Shown: positions 2,383 to 52,235 of the stretch, in pieces | Position numbering within the stretch: the stretch's first letter is position 1 | Layout: each line of letters opens with the position of its first letter | Virus record (IMG/VR): IMGVR_UViG_3300002855_000001 | Coordinates: 1 to 64,000 of that record | DNA: 64,000 nucleotides | Strand: one strand, 5' to 3' | Source of the DNA: a virus | Notes under the pieces: model-generated | The model's input: the letters and a program-made list of their open reading frames with translations, nothing else | What the model was told of the DNA's origin: nothing | The model's database searches: none | Translations under genes and position numbers: made by a program

Positions 2383-3699
2383 GTGATAGTGATGCAGCCA
2401 CTCTCCCTAGCTGCATCCTCCTTGCTTTTATTAATTTACGAAGGGAGACATAGAAATTTGACAAGAAGAAAATTTAATTTACCAACTAACGATGATAAAA
2501 AAAATGAAAAAATACTAAAAACAGTAAAAATTACTTGCACTGGAACATGTGGCAAAGAAAAAGCCCCATCACAGTTTTATATAAGTTCTAATCCTTTATA
2601 TAAAAGCACTGGAAGATTTCCTGTTTGCAAGACTTGTATCACAGACAGGCTTCCAGATTATCGAGTAAACCAGCAAAGTGACTTATATAAAGTAATTCAA
2701 GACAGGGGCTTCGTAACTTCTGTTTTGGGGTTACTAAAATCCATGAACTATCCTTTTTTACTTAAACAGTGGACTACTGCGATAAACGAAGCAGAAAAGA
2801 ATGGAAAGCATGTATTCGGCCTGTATATGAAGCACCTTGCTCAAGTTAAAGAATCTCTCACATATGACGATGGTGAAGTTAATTTATCATCAGATGACAT
2901 ATGTAAACTAAGCATTAATCGTGGTATGACACCTTCTACTCTTGAGGATGAAAAGAAAGAAGAAAAGAAAAAAGCAAAAAAAGACAATTTGAAATTTGAT
3001 GATAGCGAGTTAACGATAACTGACGAAGATTTAGAACTACAAAAAGATATTATTAGGTTGCTTGGGTATGATCCTTTCGTTGAGTACTCAGGCTTTGATA
3101 GAAAACAAATGTACCAAGATATAATCCCATATTTAGACGAGGATACACTAGAAGACCAGTTTTTAATATCGATAGTGACTCAAATTGTAAAAAGCAATCA
3201 TCAGATTAAAAAGGTAGATGACGCTATTGCAACATTAGGTTCAACTGTTGAAGATTTGAAGATAAATAGTGTTGAAATAGATAGACTCACAAAAATCAAA
3301 AAAATTTTACAAGAATCAGTCAATACAATAGCAAAAGAGAATAGCATAGCAGTTAAACACAGAAGCGACTCAGGATTAAAAAAAAGTACACTCGGATATA
3401 AAATGAAACATTATCGTGAACTAGGGTTCAAAGATGCCGAGGAAAATTTTTATGATATGAACACCTCCAGAGGTATGCAAATATCGTCTGACATAAGTGT
3501 AAAATCAATATTTAATCAGTTGAAGCTAACGGAAAGTGACTATGCTGATATTATTCAAAAGCAAACACAGGATTGTCTTCAATTAAACAACAAGGTGTTA
3601 GAACTTGAAGAAGAAATTAGAGTTTACAACGTAATAATCGATGCTTATGTTGCAGAATACGGAAAAAACAAAGAGTTGATTGAATATGAAGAAAAATAA
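2383..3699 (+). CDS. Zn-ribbon protein, possible small terminase / DNA-recognition subunit
   Basis: CTGTCGKEK...CKTC zinc ribbon, Lys/Glu-rich linker, helical C-terminus. The 3' end overlaps the terL start by 20 nt. The true start may be TTG 2458 (SD GAAGGGAG at 2440-2447), because the first 25 codons look non-coding. Confidence 0.35.
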   Translation: MIVMQPLSLAASSLLLLIYEGRHRNLTRRKFNLPTNDDKKNEKILKTVKITCTGTCGKEKAPSQFYISSNPLYKSTGRFPVCKTCITDRLPDYRVNQQSDLYKVIQDRGFVTSVLGLLKSMNYPFLLKQWTTAINEAEKNGKHVFGLYMKHLAQVKESLTYDDGEVNLSSDDICKLSINRGMTPSTLEDEKKEEKKKAKKDNLKFDDSELTITDEDLELQKDIIRLLGYDPFVEYSGFDRKQMYQDIIPYLDEDTLEDQFLISIVTQIVKSNHQIKKVDDAIATLGSTVEDLKINSVEIDRLTKIKKILQESVNTIAKENSIAVKHRSDSGLKKSTLGYKMKHYRELGFKDAEENFYDMNTSRGMQISSDISVKSIFNQLKLTESDYADIIQKQTQDCLQLNNKVLELEEEIRVYNVIIDAYVAEYGKNKELIEYEEK

Positions 3700-5515
3700 A
3701 AAAGATATGGCAATCCTAAGTGCCAGAAAAAAAGAATTGTTTAGCTTAGATGCATCCATAATTCAGTTTTGGAGAAGAAATCCTGTCATAGCATGTAAAG
3801 ACTTACTTGGGATTGAACTTTTAGATGCTCAAAAATACATACTTATGGAATCATGGACTAAGCCTTATGCTCTATGGTGTTGTTCTCGAAACTTTGGTAA
3901 AAGCTTGTTAGGTGCAGTTTACATGATGCTCAAATTTCTATTATTTGAAAATCAAAAGATTTATATAGTTGCACCAGCAGGTTCACAATCTCAAGAAACT
4001 TTCAAAAAAATTGAGGATATAGCAAAGAAGAATATCAACTCGATGCCTGATATTGAGGACATATTTTTAAGTGAAGTAGTAACAAATCATAGTAATAAAA
4101 CTGGTTTCGTACATAATCCTGCGAGCTTTACGGTAGCTGGTCACAGTGGTAGTAGGATAAATTCATTGAATGGTAACTACAACAACAATAGATCGAAAAG
4201 GTCTAGTCTGGTATTTTTTGATGAAATAGGCTTTGCCTCTGATGAGCAAATCATGGTAGCAGAAGCATTTGGTGCTCAAAATAGTGATTTCATTATGTCT
4301 ACAAAAGAAAACTTCAACTTAAAATCATTATTTAAGAAAACACCTACTCAGTTGATATATGCTTCATCTGCAAGCTCAACTGATACTTATTTTTATAAAA
4401 AGTACAAAGAGTTTGCTAAAAATATGATTGCAGGAGACAGAAGATATTTCGTTGCTGACATACCTTGTACAATTCCACTCAATCCATTGAAAAATGGAAA
4501 ACCTTTCCCACCTTTGTTGAAGCAAGAACAGGTAGATGACGCAATAGCACAATCACCTGAAAAGGGGCGTAGAGAATATTACAATGAATTCTCTGCTGAT
4601 GGTGGAGATGCACAACCAATCAAAAGACATGTTGTTCTAAGAAACTCAACTAACGTCTTACCTGTTATGTTTAATGAAAATAATAAAGATAAATTCATCT
4701 TTGCATTCGACCCTGCACGTACCTATGATAACTCTATTTGCAGTGTTATGAGAATAGCGCATGATGAAAAAGTAGGGTACTACGGTGAAGTGGTCAATTG
4801 CGTGAGTTTCGTCGATGTTGCGAAAAAGAAGAAAACTCCTATGAAAACACCAGATCAAGTGAAGTACTTCAAAAGAATGCTACTTGACTACAATGGAAAC
4901 AAAAGTCCTGACTATGAAAACATCCTATCTGTGTTAATAGATAGTGGTGCAGGTGGCGGTGGCATTCCGTTGGCAGATGGCTTGCTTGAGGAGTGGAAAG
5001 GTGATGACGGTGAAAAACACAAAGGTCTAATTGACTTAAATCACGAACAATACACCAATGAAAAAAACAACTATCCTGATGCCGTGGGAATTGTACAGTT
5101 AATAAGTCCTAAAAAATACAAAGTACAGATGGTAGAAGAGTTAATTCAATTGCTTAATCTTGATTTAATCAAATTTCCTCAGAACTACGATGGAAAAGAT
5201 TATATAAATATTACTGTTGGTGAGAACTTGGACTATGAAGAATATAAATTGTCCATGGAAGAGCAAATTGCTTTAACTAACATTGATGTCATGAAAGAAG
5301 AGTCTTTTGCTATACGAGAAACTAAAAGCGGTAACAACGTAAGTTACGATCTACCTAAAGACAAGCAAAGCACCATGGGAGATGATAGGTTTTACACCCT
5401 TCTAATGTTGGCACACTTTTTAACTCAATTAAGACGCAAAGATGCTATAAATAAACCAAAACCCAAACAGGATTGGTCTAAAGCTCCTATATTCGTATCT
5501 AAGATTTCATTTTAG
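3680..5515 (+). CDS. terL: terminase large subunit
   Basis: Walker A SRNFGKS, Walker B LVFFDEIG, and C-terminal nuclease-type acidic motifs FAFDPAR and VLIDSGAGGGG. Confidence 0.85.
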   Translation: MNMKKNKKDMAILSARKKELFSLDASIIQFWRRNPVIACKDLLGIELLDAQKYILMESWTKPYALWCCSRNFGKSLLGAVYMMLKFLLFENQKIYIVAPAGSQSQETFKKIEDIAKKNINSMPDIEDIFLSEVVTNHSNKTGFVHNPASFTVAGHSGSRINSLNGNYNNNRSKRSSLVFFDEIGFASDEQIMVAEAFGAQNSDFIMSTKENFNLKSLFKKTPTQLIYASSASSTDTYFYKKYKEFAKNMIAGDRRYFVADIPCTIPLNPLKNGKPFPPLLKQEQVDDAIAQSPEKGRREYYNEFSADGGDAQPIKRHVVLRNSTNVLPVMFNENNKDKFIFAFDPARTYDNSICSVMRIAHDEKVGYYGEVVNCVSFVDVAKKKKTPMKTPDQVKYFKRMLLDYNGNKSPDYENILSVLIDSGAGGGGIPLADGLLEEWKGDDGEKHKGLIDLNHEQYTNEKNNYPDAVGIVQLISPKKYKVQMVEELIQLLNLDLIKFPQNYDGKDYINITVGENLDYEEYKLSMEEQIALTNIDVMKEESFAIRETKSGNNVSYDLPKDKQSTMGDDRFYTLLMLAHFLTQLRRKDAINKPKPKQDWSKAPIFVSKISF

Positions 5516-47760: not shown

Positions 47761-47804
47761 ACACCCTAAACACTTAAATTTTATTGTGTTTAGGGTGTTT
47801 TTTT
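47761..47804 (+). terminator. strong terminator ending the plus-strand late region
   Basis: Perfect 13-bp stem ACACCCTAAACAC/GTGTTTAGGGTGT followed by a T run. Confidence 0.8.
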
Positions 47805-47904
47805 ACCCTTTTTTTCTCTAAAACGTCATCCTTGAACAATTCGTACTCCCCCTGTAAAACAGCCAATCAACCTCCCTCAAGGAAAATATTCATATTTCGT
47901 CTTG

Positions 47905-48252
47905 TCATCCTAGAGTCCAATAAGTTTGCTGGGTATCACTGAAATAACTTTTTGTTCCATCGGTATAATAAATAGTTAACTCATTCGTATCAGGATTGAA
48001 AGTGATCTGCTTAAGGTAGTTATTCATGTCCTGTTCCACGTGAAATGAATTATAAAGTTCTGGTCTATTTAGTTGAATATCCTTATGATCGTTAATTAAG
48101 CTAACAATAAGTCCTTCTTCTATCACTTTGCGAACGCATTTTCTGTGATTGTGGTAGGTAGAGCAAACATATTTAGGTTTATTTCTTTCTCGAATACCAC
48201 GAAAATTTCCGCCACAAGACAAACATTTAATCTTCTTGCTAAAAATATACAA
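47905..48252 (-). pseudogene. orphan C-terminal fragment of a large serine recombinase (zinc beta-ribbon region only)
   Basis: KIKCLSCGGNFRG....KYVCSTYHNHRKCVRKVIEEGL matches the recombinase zinc-ribbon domain. No resolvase catalytic domain lies upstream, because the rep-like gene stop is only 17 nt away. TTG start with SD AAGGATG. Confidence 0.55.
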
Positions 48253-48268
48253 TACAACACATCCTTTT

Positions 48269-49561
48269 TTAGAAAGGTAGTTCTGACTGAATATTTGGTG
48301 AGCTGCTATTGTTACCTAGCTTTATGGCTAATTCTTTATACTCTTCTATCATCAATGCTTGTTCACATTCCAACCTGTGTTTATTGAAAGTCAGTTCTTC
48401 ATAGTGTTCTGCAATGTACTTTGTTACGTTTTCATCTTGTTTGTTAGCTACTTGACTTAGTACTTGCTCCTTTAGTTCAGAATAGCCGATGTTGGAATTT
48501 ATTTTAGTAAATTGGTTTTCAAGCTTATATACAATCTCATTGCAGTATATACTTAATTGTAAGTCGCTGAACATGCCCTTGGTTGACTCCCTCTCATGGC
48601 CATCGTGCATTTTCGTATGCTTATGAGGGGGTAATAAAACATAAGTTTGATTGGAATTGAAGTCATATTCTAGGTCTATTTCAGGTGATTTTAACTCAGT
48701 TTCGACTAAAAATTCTTGTGAAATATGCTCATAAGCCATGTTTAAAGCAGTTTTATATGTGTATCCAGCCAACTGATCATCTTTCATCTTAAGATGTTTT
48801 TTAGATTTAATGATCTGAAAGCAAGTATTTTTTGCAATTATGTATAAAGAGTCTTTGGTGAGCATAGGATGTTTAACATACTTGAAAGCCTGAGATACTT
48901 TCACCCAAATAGTTTTCAATTTATTACCGAGTTCATTTAGAAACATTTTATTAATAACTTTTGGAACAAATTGAATGAAATTGGGGCGTTCTACTTTAGG
49001 ATGTATATCTTTAATTTCTTTAGGTAAATAATTAGGTAAGTTATAGGTAGAAGGAATATCGTCGCTCAAATTCCTTGCTACACAAAGCTTTTCACTGTTT
49101 TCAGGTTTCTCATCAAGGTTCTCATTATAATTCTCATCTGTCGTAAAATTGATAAACTCATTAAACCTTTGAAAGTATGGATGGCTTTTGAAAAAATAAA
49201 CAGCGCAACCTAGGCCATTATGCTTAACTGACTCAAAGTTTTTCTTAACAAGCACACCTTCATCAAGTAGCGTCTTGAGGAGTCTATATATAGTCTTTTC
49301 CGAAATTCCATGTTTTGCTGCTGTCTTGCTTGCTGAAGCATAGAAATAACCTTTTTCAGTTGAGAGAAAACATACAAAATCAAATGCTTTTTGTGTACCT
49401 TCTTTCATCCTGTACCATGAGCATCCAAATGTTTTTTTTATCTCATCCAATAAAGTGCCCTTGATTTGATTGAACTCTTTTCTTTTGGATTTAGTAATGT
49501 ATGCAGGTGTACTAATTATGTAATCTAATTGGTCTTGTGTTAACTTATTCGTACTTTTCAT
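48269..49561 (-). CDS. rep-like protein with winged-helix domain (putative replication initiator)
   Basis: ASKTAAKHGISEKTIYRLLKTLLDEGVLVKK is a wHTH motif. Large protein next to the ORF-free AT-rich region and the par genes. ATG 49561 (MKSTNKL) is preferred over the track TTG 49663. No clear SD. Confidence 0.4.
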   Translation of the reverse strand: MKSTNKLTQDQLDYIISTPAYITKSKRKEFNQIKGTLLDEIKKTFGCSWYRMKEGTQKAFDFVCFLSTEKGYFYASASKTAAKHGISEKTIYRLLKTLLDEGVLVKKNFESVKHNGLGCAVYFFKSHPYFQRFNEFINFTTDENYNENLDEKPENSEKLCVARNLSDDIPSTYNLPNYLPKEIKDIHPKVERPNFIQFVPKVINKMFLNELGNKLKTIWVKVSQAFKYVKHPMLTKDSLYIIAKNTCFQIIKSKKHLKMKDDQLAGYTYKTALNMAYEHISQEFLVETELKSPEIDLEYDFNSNQTYVLLPPHKHTKMHDGHERESTKGMFSDLQLSIYCNEIVYKLENQFTKINSNIGYSELKEQVLSQVANKQDENVTKYIAEHYEELTFNKHRLECEQALMIEEYKELAIKLGNNSSSPNIQSELPF

Positions 49562-49622
49562 GTTAAGTTGACAGAGTGAACAAATTACCAATTTTATATA
49601 TAACAAATAAGCCTTTCTATTC

Positions 49623-49651
49623 TTTACGAAAAAAAGGTTAAGTGTTACAAT
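49623..49651 (+). promoter_or_regulatory. candidate promoter for an antisense RNA
   Basis: -35 TTTACG (49623-49628), 17-nt spacer, TG-extended -10 TACAAT (49646-49651). It is on the strand opposite to all neighbouring genes. Confidence 0.45.
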
Positions 49652-49657
49652 AGAATC

Positions 49658-49784
49658 AATCAATAAAGTTTTTTCAATACTAAAGAGAGTGCGAATCTCA
49701 GTAGTATCTGTATCAATTCTATAAGTACTGGTTACTGGTAATTCTCTTAGATCCTCTTGCAGTGCGAATGCAAGGGGATTTTTT
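49658..49784 (+). ncRNA. candidate countertranscript antisense to the rep-gene leader (about 125 nt)
   Basis: No plus-strand gene lies nearby. The predicted RNA holds a GAGA/TCTC hairpin (49685-49699) and a CCTCTTGCA/TGCAAGGGG terminator hairpin (49753-49777, then A+T6). Both have the loop GTGCGAA. Confidence 0.4.
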
Positions 49785-49798
49785 CTGTCTTCCTCCTT

Positions 49799-50188
49799 TT
49801 ATAATAGTGATTTTAATGGTGTTTTCAATCTATTTGATTTGATCTGCTGAAGCTGTACAATGCGTATTTGTTTTTTGAATGGTGAAAAATCATAACCTAC
49901 ATTTTTCTTACCCTTCTTTATAACCTCTAAATAGTTTTTCTCACGCATGTCAGTTAATATCATATGGAGCTGCCTTTCTGATAGACCTATGATTTGACCT
50001 AACTCTTTTACTGATGGCATTACTCTTCCTTCTTTATTAATGGATTCAATTAAACTGAATACAGTCCATTCATTGGGCTTCATTCCAATAAGAAATGCTG
50101 TAGTTATAAATTGATATGGAACAGTAATTTGATCTGAGTCATTTTTCAGTTCAGATATTATTGAGTCTAAAGCAAATTCTGTAGCCAT
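49799..50188 (-). CDS. winged-helix DNA-binding protein (replication-organiser N-terminal-like)
   Basis: WTVFSLIESINKEGRVMPSVKELGQIIGLSERQLHMILTDMREKNYLEV is a wHTH motif. First gene of the minus-strand rep-like operon. Confidence 0.45.
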   Translation of the reverse strand: MATEFALDSIISELKNDSDQITVPYQFITTAFLIGMKPNEWTVFSLIESINKEGRVMPSVKELGQIIGLSERQLHMILTDMREKNYLEVIKKGKKNVGYDFSPFKKQIRIVQLQQIKSNRLKTPLKSLL

Positions 50189-51305
50189 TAAGTAATCATC
50201 CTCTCTAGCAGCTTTAATTTAATCCTATACGATTTTCTTTTCAAAGTAAACATATATGATGAATTTTTCTCTTTACTTGGCGATTTTTTTATAGTATAAT
50301 ATTCAAATTTTGCTTTGGTATACGTATGTAAAAAACTAATGCTAATAGTTTTAGTATTAGTTTTTTTGTTCGTTTAAGTAGGCCTTTTCAATGATCTAAT
50401 TGTGTATCTACTTAGAATCAACCGCTGAATTAATTATATGCTCTTAATCTTTAACGTAATCAATTCTTTAATCCATCTTATAAGCATATCTGCTTAAGAA
50501 AACCTTTCAAAAAAACTATTCCTATTAGTGCATGAACTTAATTCCGTATTCCATTAAATATTAGTATACAAATTTGATTAGAATTAAAACTATGTTTACA
50601 CATTCACTTCTAATTAAGTAATAGTAAACAGATATTACTATATAAATGTTTATCTATGTTTAAGCACTTCTAAAATGATAACTATATACACGTTCTAAAT
50701 TAACATTAAATGTGAACACACAATCAAAAATCTAAACTTCTATGTAATTATGGATGTTTGTAAAATGATAAAAGTAATTAAAGATGAATTACAAACTATA
50801 AACAAAATACATTACTATTATACAACGATAATTGATTACACAATTTGAATTGAAAAAGCTTAACTAATCATAAACATGTATATTTAAATAAATATATATA
50901 GATGTTAAAACAAAATTTGAATTTAAACTTGATACGAACATACAATTAATTTAGAGGTCGTAAACACAAACAAAATAAAACTAATAAGCGAATACGAAAT
51001 AACAATCAAATCACAACACTATTTCAAAACAGAAAACTAAAAAGATTTTTCAAACATATACAAAATCTGATCCACTTATAAGTATGTATCGAAATTGCAA
51101 AACGTTTTGATTGCTTGAAACAAAATTATAGATAGGTATAATTCAGAATACGTAATAAGTATCCAAAACTACTACATACACAAATATGTAATAGTGTACT
51201 ATTTTAATTATGTATACAAAAAAGTGTACTTTTTTATTGCATGATAAAATTATCATGTGTGGTTGACAAAGATTGGATATGCCTATAAGATAGTAGATAT
51301 ATATT
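50189..51305. other. 1.1-kb ORF-free, very AT-rich region; candidate plasmid-type origin and control region
   Basis: No ORF of 60 aa or more in any frame. The top strand is G-poor from about 50560 to 51060. Holds ATACGAA-type repeats (50932-50947, 50992-51007), the palindrome CAAAACGTTTTG (51098-51109) and AGTGTACT direct repeats (51193-51200, 51223-51230). Confidence 0.4.
51240..51291 (+). promoter_or_regulatory. parA promoter with adjacent palindromic operator
   Basis: CATGATAA-AA-TTATCATG (51240-51257), -35 TTGACA (51263-51268), -10 TATAAG/TAAGAT (51284-51291). Confidence 0.5.
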
Positions 51306-51326
51306 ATGTGTAGAGGGAGTGTTTTT

Positions 51327-52235
51327 GTGGCAATAACGATAACTGTAGGAATTCAGAAGGGCGGTTGTGGAAAAACGCTTACTTCTGGGATACTCGCACA
51401 CCTTCTCAGTCAACGTGGATACAAAGTTCTTGCTGTAGATATGGACTCACAAGGAAATTTAACTCAATTACTTACTGAGGTAGAAGATATATATGTTTTT
51501 CGTGGAAGAACAATTATGGATGCAGTAAAAAATGGATTATCTGAGGATCATATAGTGGTAGTAGACGATAATCTTCATATCATACCTTCCAATGATTTAC
51601 TAGCTTTGTATTCAAGCTATATTGCAACGGCTAAAGCAAAGAATAGTACCAATTTTGATTTTAACATGACATTGAGCTACGTTTTAGCCCCTGTTCAAGA
51701 TAGATATGATTTTATTATTATAGATACACCACCAGCTCTATCAGAACAAACATTGAACTCAATGGCTGCTAGTGATTATATTATCACAATGTTTGAAGCT
51801 AGTAACTTTTGTCTAGCAGCAATCCCAAGATATTTTGAAACTTACATCAGATTAAAAGAAAAGGTCAACCCAAATCTTAAGATGCTAGGTGTTGTTAGAA
51901 CTTTAATCGATGTTCGTAGAGTTGATAATAACATGTTGATCAACACTATTGATGAAATGATTGAAGGGGTTTGTTTTAGAAACATCATCAACAGAACAGC
52001 GGCAGTAGGAAGGATAGGTTTGAGAGGGTTTAAGAATAATGATGAACTAAAGAAAGCGCTAGAGCAGCACGAAGTACTTTTAGATGAAATACTAGGAAGA
52101 ATAGTTGAAGAAGATGATTACTTTGGAAAAATTGATAATACGATTGAGGATTACTTAGTGAAGGACTTTGAACGACTAGAGCAACTGGAGAAACAGATGA
52201 ACACAAGAGTGGAGGGAGAGGTTGTAGATGGCTAA
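51327..52235 (+). CDS. parA: ParA/Soj-family partition ATPase (short, type Ib-like)
   Basis: Deviant Walker A IQKGGCGKT, LAVDMDSQGNLT, Walker B FIIIDTPP. GTG 51327 lies 7 nt after the SD GAGGGAG (track start ATG 51306). Confidence 0.9.
   Translation: MAITITVGIQKGGCGKTLTSGILAHLLSQRGYKVLAVDMDSQGNLTQLLTEVEDIYVFRGRTIMDAVKNGLSEDHIVVVDDNLHIIPSNDLLALYSSYIATAKAKNSTNFDFNMTLSYVLAPVQDRYDFIIIDTPPALSEQTLNSMAASDYIITMFEASNFCLAAIPRYFETYIRLKEKVNPNLKMLGVVRTLIDVRRVDNNMLINTIDEMIEGVCFRNIINRTAAVGRIGLRGFKNNDELKKALEQHEVLLDEILGRIVEEDDYFGKIDNTIEDYLVKDFERLEQLEKQMNTRVEGEVVDG

Follow-up and report, generated by a model that had tools for sequence, protein, structure and literature searches.

We describe a putative antisense-controlled translation element in the leader of a rep-like gene located within the IMG/VR virus record IMGVR_UViG_3300002855_000001 (positions 1-64,000; this whole 64,000-nucleotide (nt) stretch is hereafter the window, to which coordinates refer unless another locus is named). 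The rep-like gene starts at an AUG that lacks a Shine-Dalgarno (SD) sequence, and a strong SD without a start codon of its own (the orphan SD) lies far upstream, right behind a gene for a winged helix-turn-helix (wHTH) protein. The leader in between is predicted to fold into a junction that would carry the orphan SD to the AUG, and the opposite strand bears a promoter and an intrinsic terminator that would together produce a short RNA complementary to the core of this fold. Comparison with related loci supports in general a short plus-strand countertranscript opposite the rep-like leader. Our preferred interpretation, that this countertranscript controls a split ribosome-binding site (RBS), draws on sequence comparison and structure modelling, and we put its probability at roughly 45%.

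The single-sequence features of the window exceed chance only because they can be compared with related loci. Protein searches provided close loci with 59-66% identity (L001, L002, which equals L003 and L004, and L005) as well as distant ones, namely Brevibacillus phage Sundance (L010; KT151959), a B. laterosporus contig (L014), L015/L016, and L017, and a scan with the motif of the H1 hairpin described below contributed L023 and L030. The loci were grouped into three sequence types, the window type (four loci), the Sundance type (three), and the L017 type (three), and in all three a non-coding gap of ~230-500 nt precedes rep. Sundance is a sequenced isolate, and it carries the homologous element. 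It was also the only locus recovered by an alignment-seeded locus search; blastn with the 2.1-kb region against phage and plasmid collections gave no match, and Rep-seeded locus searches of viral or genome contigs gave no close relative. We discarded three loci from pattern scans (L006, L007, L008) as chance matches in GC-rich DNA in which the hairpin is absent, and 13 of the 16 H1-motif matches as unrelated, five of them (L021, L022, L025, L034, L035) being tRNA-gene-like. No Rfam family was matched in the window (E ≤ 10) or in eight related loci (E ≤ 0.1); the sole Rfam match over the interval, a trpB motif at E = 5.4, was rejected as a product of the terminator. Contrary to a first impression, the intergenic region is not better conserved than the genes: the leaders share 63.6% nucleotide identity (pairwise mean) vs. 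67.9% for rep, and the conservation of the leader is in blocks.

The rep-like gene (48269..49561, minus strand) encodes 430 amino acids (aa) and begins with ATG 49559-49561, where the pairing with the 16S 3' end is computed at +1.0 kcal/mol, the weakest value of the 52 open reading frames (ORFs) of the window. Each of the nine loci that extend to the start codon has an SD-less rep AUG (+1.9 to −2.1 kcal/mol), whereas in two distant plasmid relatives the SD is contiguous, at −9.1 and −9.4 kcal/mol and 8-9 nt before the ATG. This start was set by homology, its MKSTNKL aligning with MTQNRKI and MTKNRKV. The alternative starts TTG 49663 and TTG 49606 (weak GAAAGG before) were rejected because the added stretch lacks conservation; in L001, L002, and L005, the same alternative TTG is followed by a stop after 2-8 codons.

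The orphan SD, AAAGGAGG (49792..49799, minus strand), stands 230 nt upstream of the rep AUG, right after the wHTH stop codon (49799-49801). The initial annotation had drawn attention to a start-less SD-like sequence at this place, and it proved to be the most informative feature of the locus. It pairs with the 16S 3' end at −12.2 kcal/mol, compared to a median of −9.4 kcal/mol for the 52 ORFs, and is invariant in the four close loci. An SD is found there in all nine loci, with energies of −12.2 to −15.3 kcal/mol and at 217-451 nt upstream of the rep AUG. The first possible start after the orphan SD of the window is a TTG located 18 nt on, inside a hairpin stem, and across the nine loci no conserved start codon follows the SD. 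Likewise, no conserved short ORF that could encode a leader peptide was found in the leaders compared: TTG +18, TTG 49606, and ATG +16 in L017 were considered, and each is absent or stopped at once in the sister loci.

The wHTH and rep-like genes are separated by 237 nt (49562-49798), slightly more than the 235 nt first counted, and every ORF between 47.9 and 50.2 kb is on the minus strand, as had been stated. Pattern scans of the window and the related loci found no conserved promoter between the two genes. Since neither a conserved promoter nor a conserved terminator separates them, we infer that they are co-transcribed as one minus-strand operon with a 237-nt structured intercistronic leader. 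Two sense promoters near rep were considered and rejected. The one in L002 (1055-1082, TTAACA-16-TAAAGT) mirrors the antisense hexamers at 9/12 and would leave an SD-less rep leader of 48 nt; such a mirror-image sense site overlaps the antisense promoter (window ~49620-49650, minus strand) because the antisense hexamers are nearly palindromic. The other, TAGAAA-17-TAAAAT in the window, is not conserved.

What would link the orphan SD to the AUG is a helix, LR1, formed in the window by GACAGA (49784..49789, minus strand), 2 nt past the orphan SD, and UCUGUC (49570..49575, minus strand), 8 nt before the rep AUG. LR1 can be drawn in nine of nine loci, always starting 2-3 nt after the SD and ending 7-10 nt before the AUG, over linear SD-AUG distances of 217-451 nt. 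Each type has its own LR1 sequence: the window type pairs GACAG(A) with (U)CUGUC, the Sundance type AAUUAGGCAA with UUGCCUAAUU, and the L017 type AUUAGGC with GCCUAAU. The cognate duplexes are computed at −7.3 to −12.7 kcal/mol and the cross-type ones at 0 to −4 kcal/mol, with one at −6.0 kcal/mol. The CTGTC of the 3' strand is retained in four of the four close loci within an otherwise variable stretch, and for the Sundance-type LR1 none of 1847-2400 background windows and none of 1000 shuffles is as good. A weak GGCAA/UUGCC helix, taken as the LR1 of L017, gave way to the present one when the start codon supported by homology was adopted. The minimum-energy fold of every leader, computed singly, closes with LR1, RNAalifold gives the same topology in two types, and the sense leader of the window folds with z = −3.7 (0/200 shuffles as good).

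Inside LR1, a second helix, LR2, pairs GAGAAUUACCA (49736..49746, minus strand), which lies inside the antisense target, with UGGUAAUUUGUUC (49578..49590, minus strand), corresponding to RNAalifold columns 63-73 and 223-233. For LR2 the window type has GAAUUACCA/UGGUAAUUC, the Sundance type AUGGCAAA/UUUGCCAU, and the L017 type CAAAUAGG/CCUGUUUG; 92.5% of cells are paired, one pair is altered on both sides, and compensatory changes occur in L005 and L023. Eight of 40 cells are G.U on the sense strand, and because the G.U cells fall on this strand, LR2 seems to be selected as sense RNA, opposite to H1 (below); both strands of the interval thus appear to work as RNA. In the predicted fold LR1, LR2, and H1, the complement of the antisense terminator, make up a three-way junction. 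The leader also contains a sense hairpin that encloses the antisense −35 element (49598..49648, minus strand; stems UAACA/UGUUA and CCUU/AAGG; helices 4 and 5 of the consensus), which is 100% paired with two pairs altered on both sides, has no regular U-tail, and is not called as a terminator by the scan. Over the whole window-type sense structure 92.7% of cells are paired vs. 40-45% when the partners are slid, and eight pairs are altered on both sides. All nine loci combine an SD-less start, a strong upstream SD without a start, and a helix that, in the modelled folds, would give a usable spacing.

The orphan SD could also have a different job. It may act as a stabiliser of the STAB-SD kind, where a parked 30S subunit guards the rep mRNA from 5'-3' decay, rep is translated independently of an SD, and the antisense RNA acts mainly by creating an RNase III substrate and promoting decay. 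In cry3A of Bacillus thuringiensis, the STAB-SD pairs with the 16S 3' end and stops RNase J1 (PMC4113751), and our start-less (A/G)AAGGAGG fits its description: like the cry3A element, GAAAGGAGG lies far upstream in a Bacillus-group mRNA and has no start codon of its own (PMC4113751). In all loci an untranslated, start-less SD complementary to the 16S 3' end (at the energies given above) forms the 5' edge of the leader, and in the window a promoter-like site (49828..49801, minus strand) ends right before it. That promoter-like site, however, is not conserved. Moreover, the start codon of cry3A is served by a normal SD and no helix joins its start region to the STAB-SD, whereas the gene here lacks any further SD and a conserved helix connects the orphan SD with the start region. 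Stabilisation does not account for an SD-less rep in nine of nine loci, in which they differ from the plasmid relatives, or for the pairing of an SD-adjacent with an AUG-adjacent segment at constant spacing and with type-specific sequence. As a full explanation we regard it as unlikely, if the most serious of the alternatives; as an additional role of the same SD it is plausibly compatible with a split RBS.

On the opposite strand, every sequence feature listed in the initial annotation is present at the coordinates it gave. The proposed promoter, TTTACG-17-TGtTACAAT, is there to the letter (49623..49651, plus strand), with the −35 element TTTACG at 49623-49628, a 17-nt spacer, and the extended −10 element TGtTACAAT at 49643-49651 (scan score 9/12 plus TG). 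The match alone is at chance level and proves nothing, because promoter-like sites are not enriched over shuffles (17 in 4 kb vs. 21.6 ± 5.1; for terminator-like sites, 2 vs. 1.3 expected), but the promoter is conserved in the related loci. The four window-type loci share an invariant −35 element, a 17-nt spacer, and a TGT-extended −10 element, TA(C/A)AAT; at the corresponding position, TTGATT-17-TATAAT is found in the Sundance type and TTGCAT-16-TGcTATAAT in the L017 type. An invariant block, AACAAATAAA (49604-49613, plus strand), just upstream of the promoter may be an UP element. Opposite the rep leader of ten loci from the three types, the promoter is found 115-153 nt upstream of a hairpin and T-run on the same strand, so that a short structured RNA of 115-153 nt is predicted in each; for Sundance it would be ~115 nt long, running from L010 2730 down to 2612.

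This hairpin, H1' in the antisense and H1 in the sense RNA, is in the window an intrinsic terminator (49749..49784, plus strand) with a 12-13-bp stem, the loop GTGCGAA (49762-49768), and six T. Its core stem, CCTCTTGCA (49753-49761) with TGCAAGGGG (49769-49777), is followed by an A and the T6 run (49779-49784), in line with the terminator first proposed. The scan calls it as a terminator with 13 pairs (49749-49781) and calls antisense terminators in L002, L017, and L023 as well. The nearest upstream plus-strand gene, an amidase gene, has its own terminator at 47792-47809, so the hairpin at 49749-49781 has nothing else to terminate. The stem has undergone compensatory changes, with three pairs altered on both sides, and these show a strand preference: on the antisense strand every one of the 48 cells is paired, on the sense strand 41 of 44, and C.A mismatches of the latter become G.U on the former. 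Among six distinct H1 variants (window, L001, L005, L017, L023, L030), all 11 sense-strand mismatches are G.U in the antisense RNA, and the reverse case does not occur. This asymmetry suggests that the hairpin is selected as RNA read from the plus strand of the window.

The predicted countertranscript extends over 49658..49786 (plus strand, ~125-129 nt), with its 5' end placed 7 nt past the −10 element and its 3' end at the T-run, and contains neither an ATG nor an SD in its interior. Folding both strands, as had been suggested, gives z = −2.5 for this RNA (6/200 shuffles as good) in addition to the sense value above. Its 5' hairpin, H2' (49677..49707, plus strand), was first recorded as a small GAGA/TCTC hairpin at 49685-49699. 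That core is present (GAGA 49685-49688, TCTC 49696-49699), but the stem in fact extends to ~10 bp, consisting in the RNAalifold consensus of 6 bp, a 2x2 internal loop, 4 bp, and the 7-nt loop GTGCGAA (49689-49695), and its cells are paired at 92.5% on the antisense vs. 86.4% on the sense strand.

The original proposal had assigned this RNA to the copy-number RNAs of the pIP501/pAMbeta1/pT181 type, in which binding of the antisense RNA to the nascent leader lets a terminator form before rep. A countertranscript opposite the leader is what we find too, and the conserved antisense promoter and terminator are shared by this explanation. Attenuation would also suit a covarying hairpin that is followed, in the window type, by an invariant UUUAUUUGUU, and a long sense hairpin with U-runs that ends up ~80 nt before the AUG in the Sundance type, which may have kept an attenuator. 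Among the plasmids, the rep homologue L012 has an antisense promoter-like site, as does L011, and a sense terminator directly before its contiguous SD. The attenuation type nevertheless does not carry over to the window, where no sense terminator and no Rfam or Rep family match is found. The scan detects no sense-strand terminator-like site in the leaders of the window, L002, L017, and L023, the UUUAUU forms an internal loop rather than a tail in the consensus fold, and the hairpin of L001 is reduced to a mere 4 bp with an 18-nt loop. Classical attenuation further leaves the orphan SD, the SD-less AUG, and the LR1 geometry unaccounted for, and we consider it improbable for these phages. The plasmids L011 (2200-2445; Priestia filamentosa pBEH2) and L012 (2270-2500; Bacillus badius pPM8) have a different common leader, with CACCGTGA..CACGGTAAACAC and GTGTTTACCG..CGGTAAATA, and theirs does look like classical countertranscript attenuation.

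The identity of the H1' and H2' loops, another feature noted at the outset, is real. GTGCGAA occurs twice on the plus strand of the whole window, and the two occurrences are these loops. On the sense strand both loops read TTCGCAC in the window and L001, TTCGCAG in L002 and L005, where position 7 has changed from C to G in both, and TTAGCAG, again twice, in the Sundance type; the loop pair thus co-varies. The L017 type has a single such loop. The identity suggests either that a single antisense loop can engage each of the two target loops or that the loops are read by a protein. Pairing of the UUCGCAC loops with the rep start as a pseudoknot was rejected, as the GUACGAA at codons 3-5 of the window is absent from the other loci (by eye). 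The Sundance type has an extra hairpin, H0 (L010 2548-2582), between the stop codon of the DnaD-like gene and the orphan SD, whose loop is the same TTAGCAG as in H1; it is upstream of the SD and outside the predicted antisense overlap, and is a terminator on neither strand. Separately, the loop of the Sundance sense hairpin H2 (L010 2695-2726) shows CCCCUUCC, which is complementary to GGAAGGAGG of the orphan SD region, and the Sundance antisense RNA consequently bears an SD-like GGAAGGGG loop.

H0 raises the possibility that the plus-strand product is a small RNA with its main job elsewhere, either acting in trans for the phage or decoupling the wHTH gene from rep by transcriptional interference, since the loop would then also recognise a site that the antisense RNA does not overlap. 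In that case the overlap with the leader would be incidental. The position of the RNA relative to the SD, LR1, H1, and LR2 is, however, kept in three types of otherwise unrelated sequence, which ties it to the rep leader and makes an unrelated function quite doubtful. Least probable of all, to a degree that we give it little weight, is that the hairpins act purely as DNA, as an origin part, a single-strand initiation site, or protein sites with heptamers read by Rep or the wHTH protein and no regulatory RNA: the region does lie within a replication module, and loops that change together are what a common binding factor, rather than a cis-antisense pair, would need, yet the stems vary by compensation around fixed loops as hairpins and not duplex operators do, H1 is fully paired on one strand alone and LR2 on the other so that two single-stranded molecules are called for, a promoter and a T-run are rightly placed in three sequence types, and the interval has no iterons.

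We therefore return to the countertranscript-controlled split RBS. The fold would bring the distant SD close enough to the AUG to work, with unpaired spacers on the two sides of LR1 that sum to 9-12 nt, near the 8-9 nt of the contiguous sites in the plasmid relatives. Translation of Rep would thus require the folded leader. As for the countertranscript, its complement includes H1, H2, and the 5' strand of LR2 but neither the SD nor LR1, stopping exactly at the A-run beside LR1. This RNA might dock through its 7-nt loops and then pair along its length, which would open the junction, part the SD from the AUG, and halt Rep synthesis; the resulting duplex may be an RNase III substrate, and a cut would detach the SD from the coding region. 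With the amount of antisense RNA tracking gene dosage, the copy number of the phage-plasmid would be held down. In the thermodynamic model, the probability of LR1 is 0.93-0.99 in the free leader and 0.02-0.72 when the antisense target is masked. With the target masked, the freed 3' strand of LR2 is predicted to pair with rep codons 4-8, which places the AUG within a hairpin (window 49540-49595, minus strand) and could possibly add a second layer of repression. Extended to a whole clade of large Bacillota phage-plasmids, in which a rep without a local RBS would receive its SD from 217-451 nt upstream by way of a junction that is dismantled by a countertranscript encoded inside the leader to set the copy number, the proposal is tenable, with the odds leaning somewhat against it.

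Several points weigh against the split RBS. The sample is small, with 4 + 3 + 3 loci whose members are related within each type. The window-type LR1 has just 5-6 bp, and 14-172 background windows equal it (~1.4-7%); overall, LR1 has only two independent sequence solutions. In some loci LR1 stays fairly probable after masking, as in L023 with the 0.72 given above. The ribosome would have to accommodate a domain of 200-450 nt between the SD and the AUG; in the known split sites, a hairpin is all that lies there. The Sundance-type hairpin and its U-runs are a possible attenuator in the sense leader. Lastly, a cis-antisense pair does not need identical loops, and the split RBS leaves this identity unexplained.

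RBSs split by RNA structure have precedents. The genes 38 and 25 of phage T4 have split sites. So does E. coli thrS (PMC3936740). As in these genes, a structured insert would separate the parts of the RBS and its folding would restore the geometry. The known inserts differ in being single hairpins of ~20-40 nt that are not antisense targets, whereas the present one would be a multi-helix domain of 200-450 nt with an antisense RNA gene. In IncI-alpha (ColIb-P9), IncB (pMU720), and IncL/M plasmids, translation of repZ/repA needs a pseudoknot near the RBS, and the Inc RNA prevents its formation. The element resembles the IncI-alpha/IncB systems in that an activating long-range RNA contact would be blocked by an antisense RNA. 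In the latter the contact is a loop-to-linear pseudoknot of few bp that requires translation of a leader peptide, and the SD that is sequestered there is rep's own, whereas here two ordinary helices would close a 200-450-nt domain, there is no conserved leader peptide, and the SD itself is distant.

The layout appears closer to pMV158 than to pIP501, pAMbeta1, or pT181. RNAII of pMV158, a system of rolling-circle plasmids of Firmicutes, is a countertranscript to the copG-repB intergenic region with its own promoter and terminator, acts on translation, and has its target upstream of atypical rep initiation signals (PMC4485353). Both systems have an operon of a small DNA-binding-protein gene and rep, with a countertranscript over the intercistronic region. 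They differ in that RNAII, a 48-nt RNA with a single hairpin, binds immediately before the initiation signals, whereas our RNA would be ~125 nt long with two hairpins, its target is 90-215 nt from the AUG, and the SD lies beyond that target as seen from the AUG. The proteins differ as well, as the Rep here is helix-turn-helix (HTH)-type with no Rep_2/HUH and no ribbon-helix-helix match, and the upstream protein resembles the DnaD N-terminal domain and not the ribbon-helix-helix protein CopG. With RNAIII of pIP501, RNAI/II of pT181, and pAMbeta1, the element shares a cis-encoded multi-hairpin antisense RNA opposite a Gram-positive rep leader, and in pIP501 two loop pairs kiss simultaneously (PMC4485353). 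Those systems, unlike the window type, need a rho-independent attenuator in the leader and have an SD of rep's own, and again no Rfam family is matched. That antisense RNAs control rep genes is textbook knowledge, but the known mechanisms are few (primer maturation, attenuation, direct RBS blocking, and pseudoknot blocking). If the split RBS is real, a regulator whose gene sits in the insert, acting on an SD and an AUG that folding alone unites across hundreds of nt, would be a new one. It would also mean that bacterial ribosomes can use an RBS interrupted by a large folded domain, which is relevant to the design of RNA-gated expression switches.

The window is a piece of a large novel phage with a Bacillota host, with genes for terminase, portal, tail, holin, amidase, a PolC-like polymerase, and thymidylate synthase. 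Adjoining the lysis genes is a plasmid-type module consisting of parA (51306-52235), a 1.1-kb AT-rich non-coding stretch, and three minus-strand genes, in the order of the 129-aa wHTH gene, the 430-aa HTH (rep-like) gene, and a 115-aa zinc-ribbon fragment. The wHTH gene (49799..50188, minus strand) encodes a winged-helix protein resembling the DnaD N-terminal domain and has its own SD (−10.1 kcal/mol). Against PHROG, the rep-like protein has weak matches to replication initiators (E = 3.5e-6 to 3e-3), and its best match (3e-10) is named merely HTH DNA-binding protein; in Pfam and NCBIfam it matches no curated Rep family, Pfam yielding generic HTH matches alone, and the Inc18 RepR and Rep_trans families are unmatched. 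Homologues with 27-35% identity occur in small Priestia and Bacillus plasmids of 8-10 kb and in Brevibacillus phage Sundance, no other replication gene is apparent in the inspected 5.8 kb of pPM8, and the synteny of the rep-like gene, a DnaD-like gene, and parA is maintained in relatives. The label rep for the 430-aa protein is well founded on these grounds, short of a demonstration.

The 1.1-kb AT-rich stretch between the wHTH gene and the divergent parA (50189-51305) has no long ORF, just three overlapping ones of 32-59 aa, and holds several direct or inverted repeats, e.g., 50311-50349/50491-50529, 50330-50366, and 51190-51236. We consider this stretch a candidate origin of replication or partition site. 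Directly 3' of rep, the 115-aa ORF (47905-48252, minus strand) corresponds to the zinc beta-ribbon of serine recombinases only, and such an ORF (115-117 aa) directly follows rep in L002 too (2439-2792). It would be a remnant standing on its own, or else a small accessory protein. L002 further has an HNH endonuclease gene (3820-4374; NUMOD4/HNH_3) between holin and amidase, which the window does not have at that place.

Genes without an SD are often given wrong starts, and the annotations of the Sundance-type and L017-type loci show this. SUNDANCE_4 has its annotated start at 2911 (L010 2911-3000; L010 is the reverse complement of KT151959), and homology begins at 3001, so the start is probably ~30 codons too early. 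SUNDANCE_5 (L010 2596-2898) lies wholly within the structured leader and its frame has stops in L014 and L015; it is probably no real gene. The rep homologues of L017 (3001-3051) and L023 (4649-4699) are called 17 codons too early (MTDFLF...), the homology-supported ATG being the second one. The early stretch in these two loci is the 3' strand of LR2, which implies that its conservation is at the RNA level.

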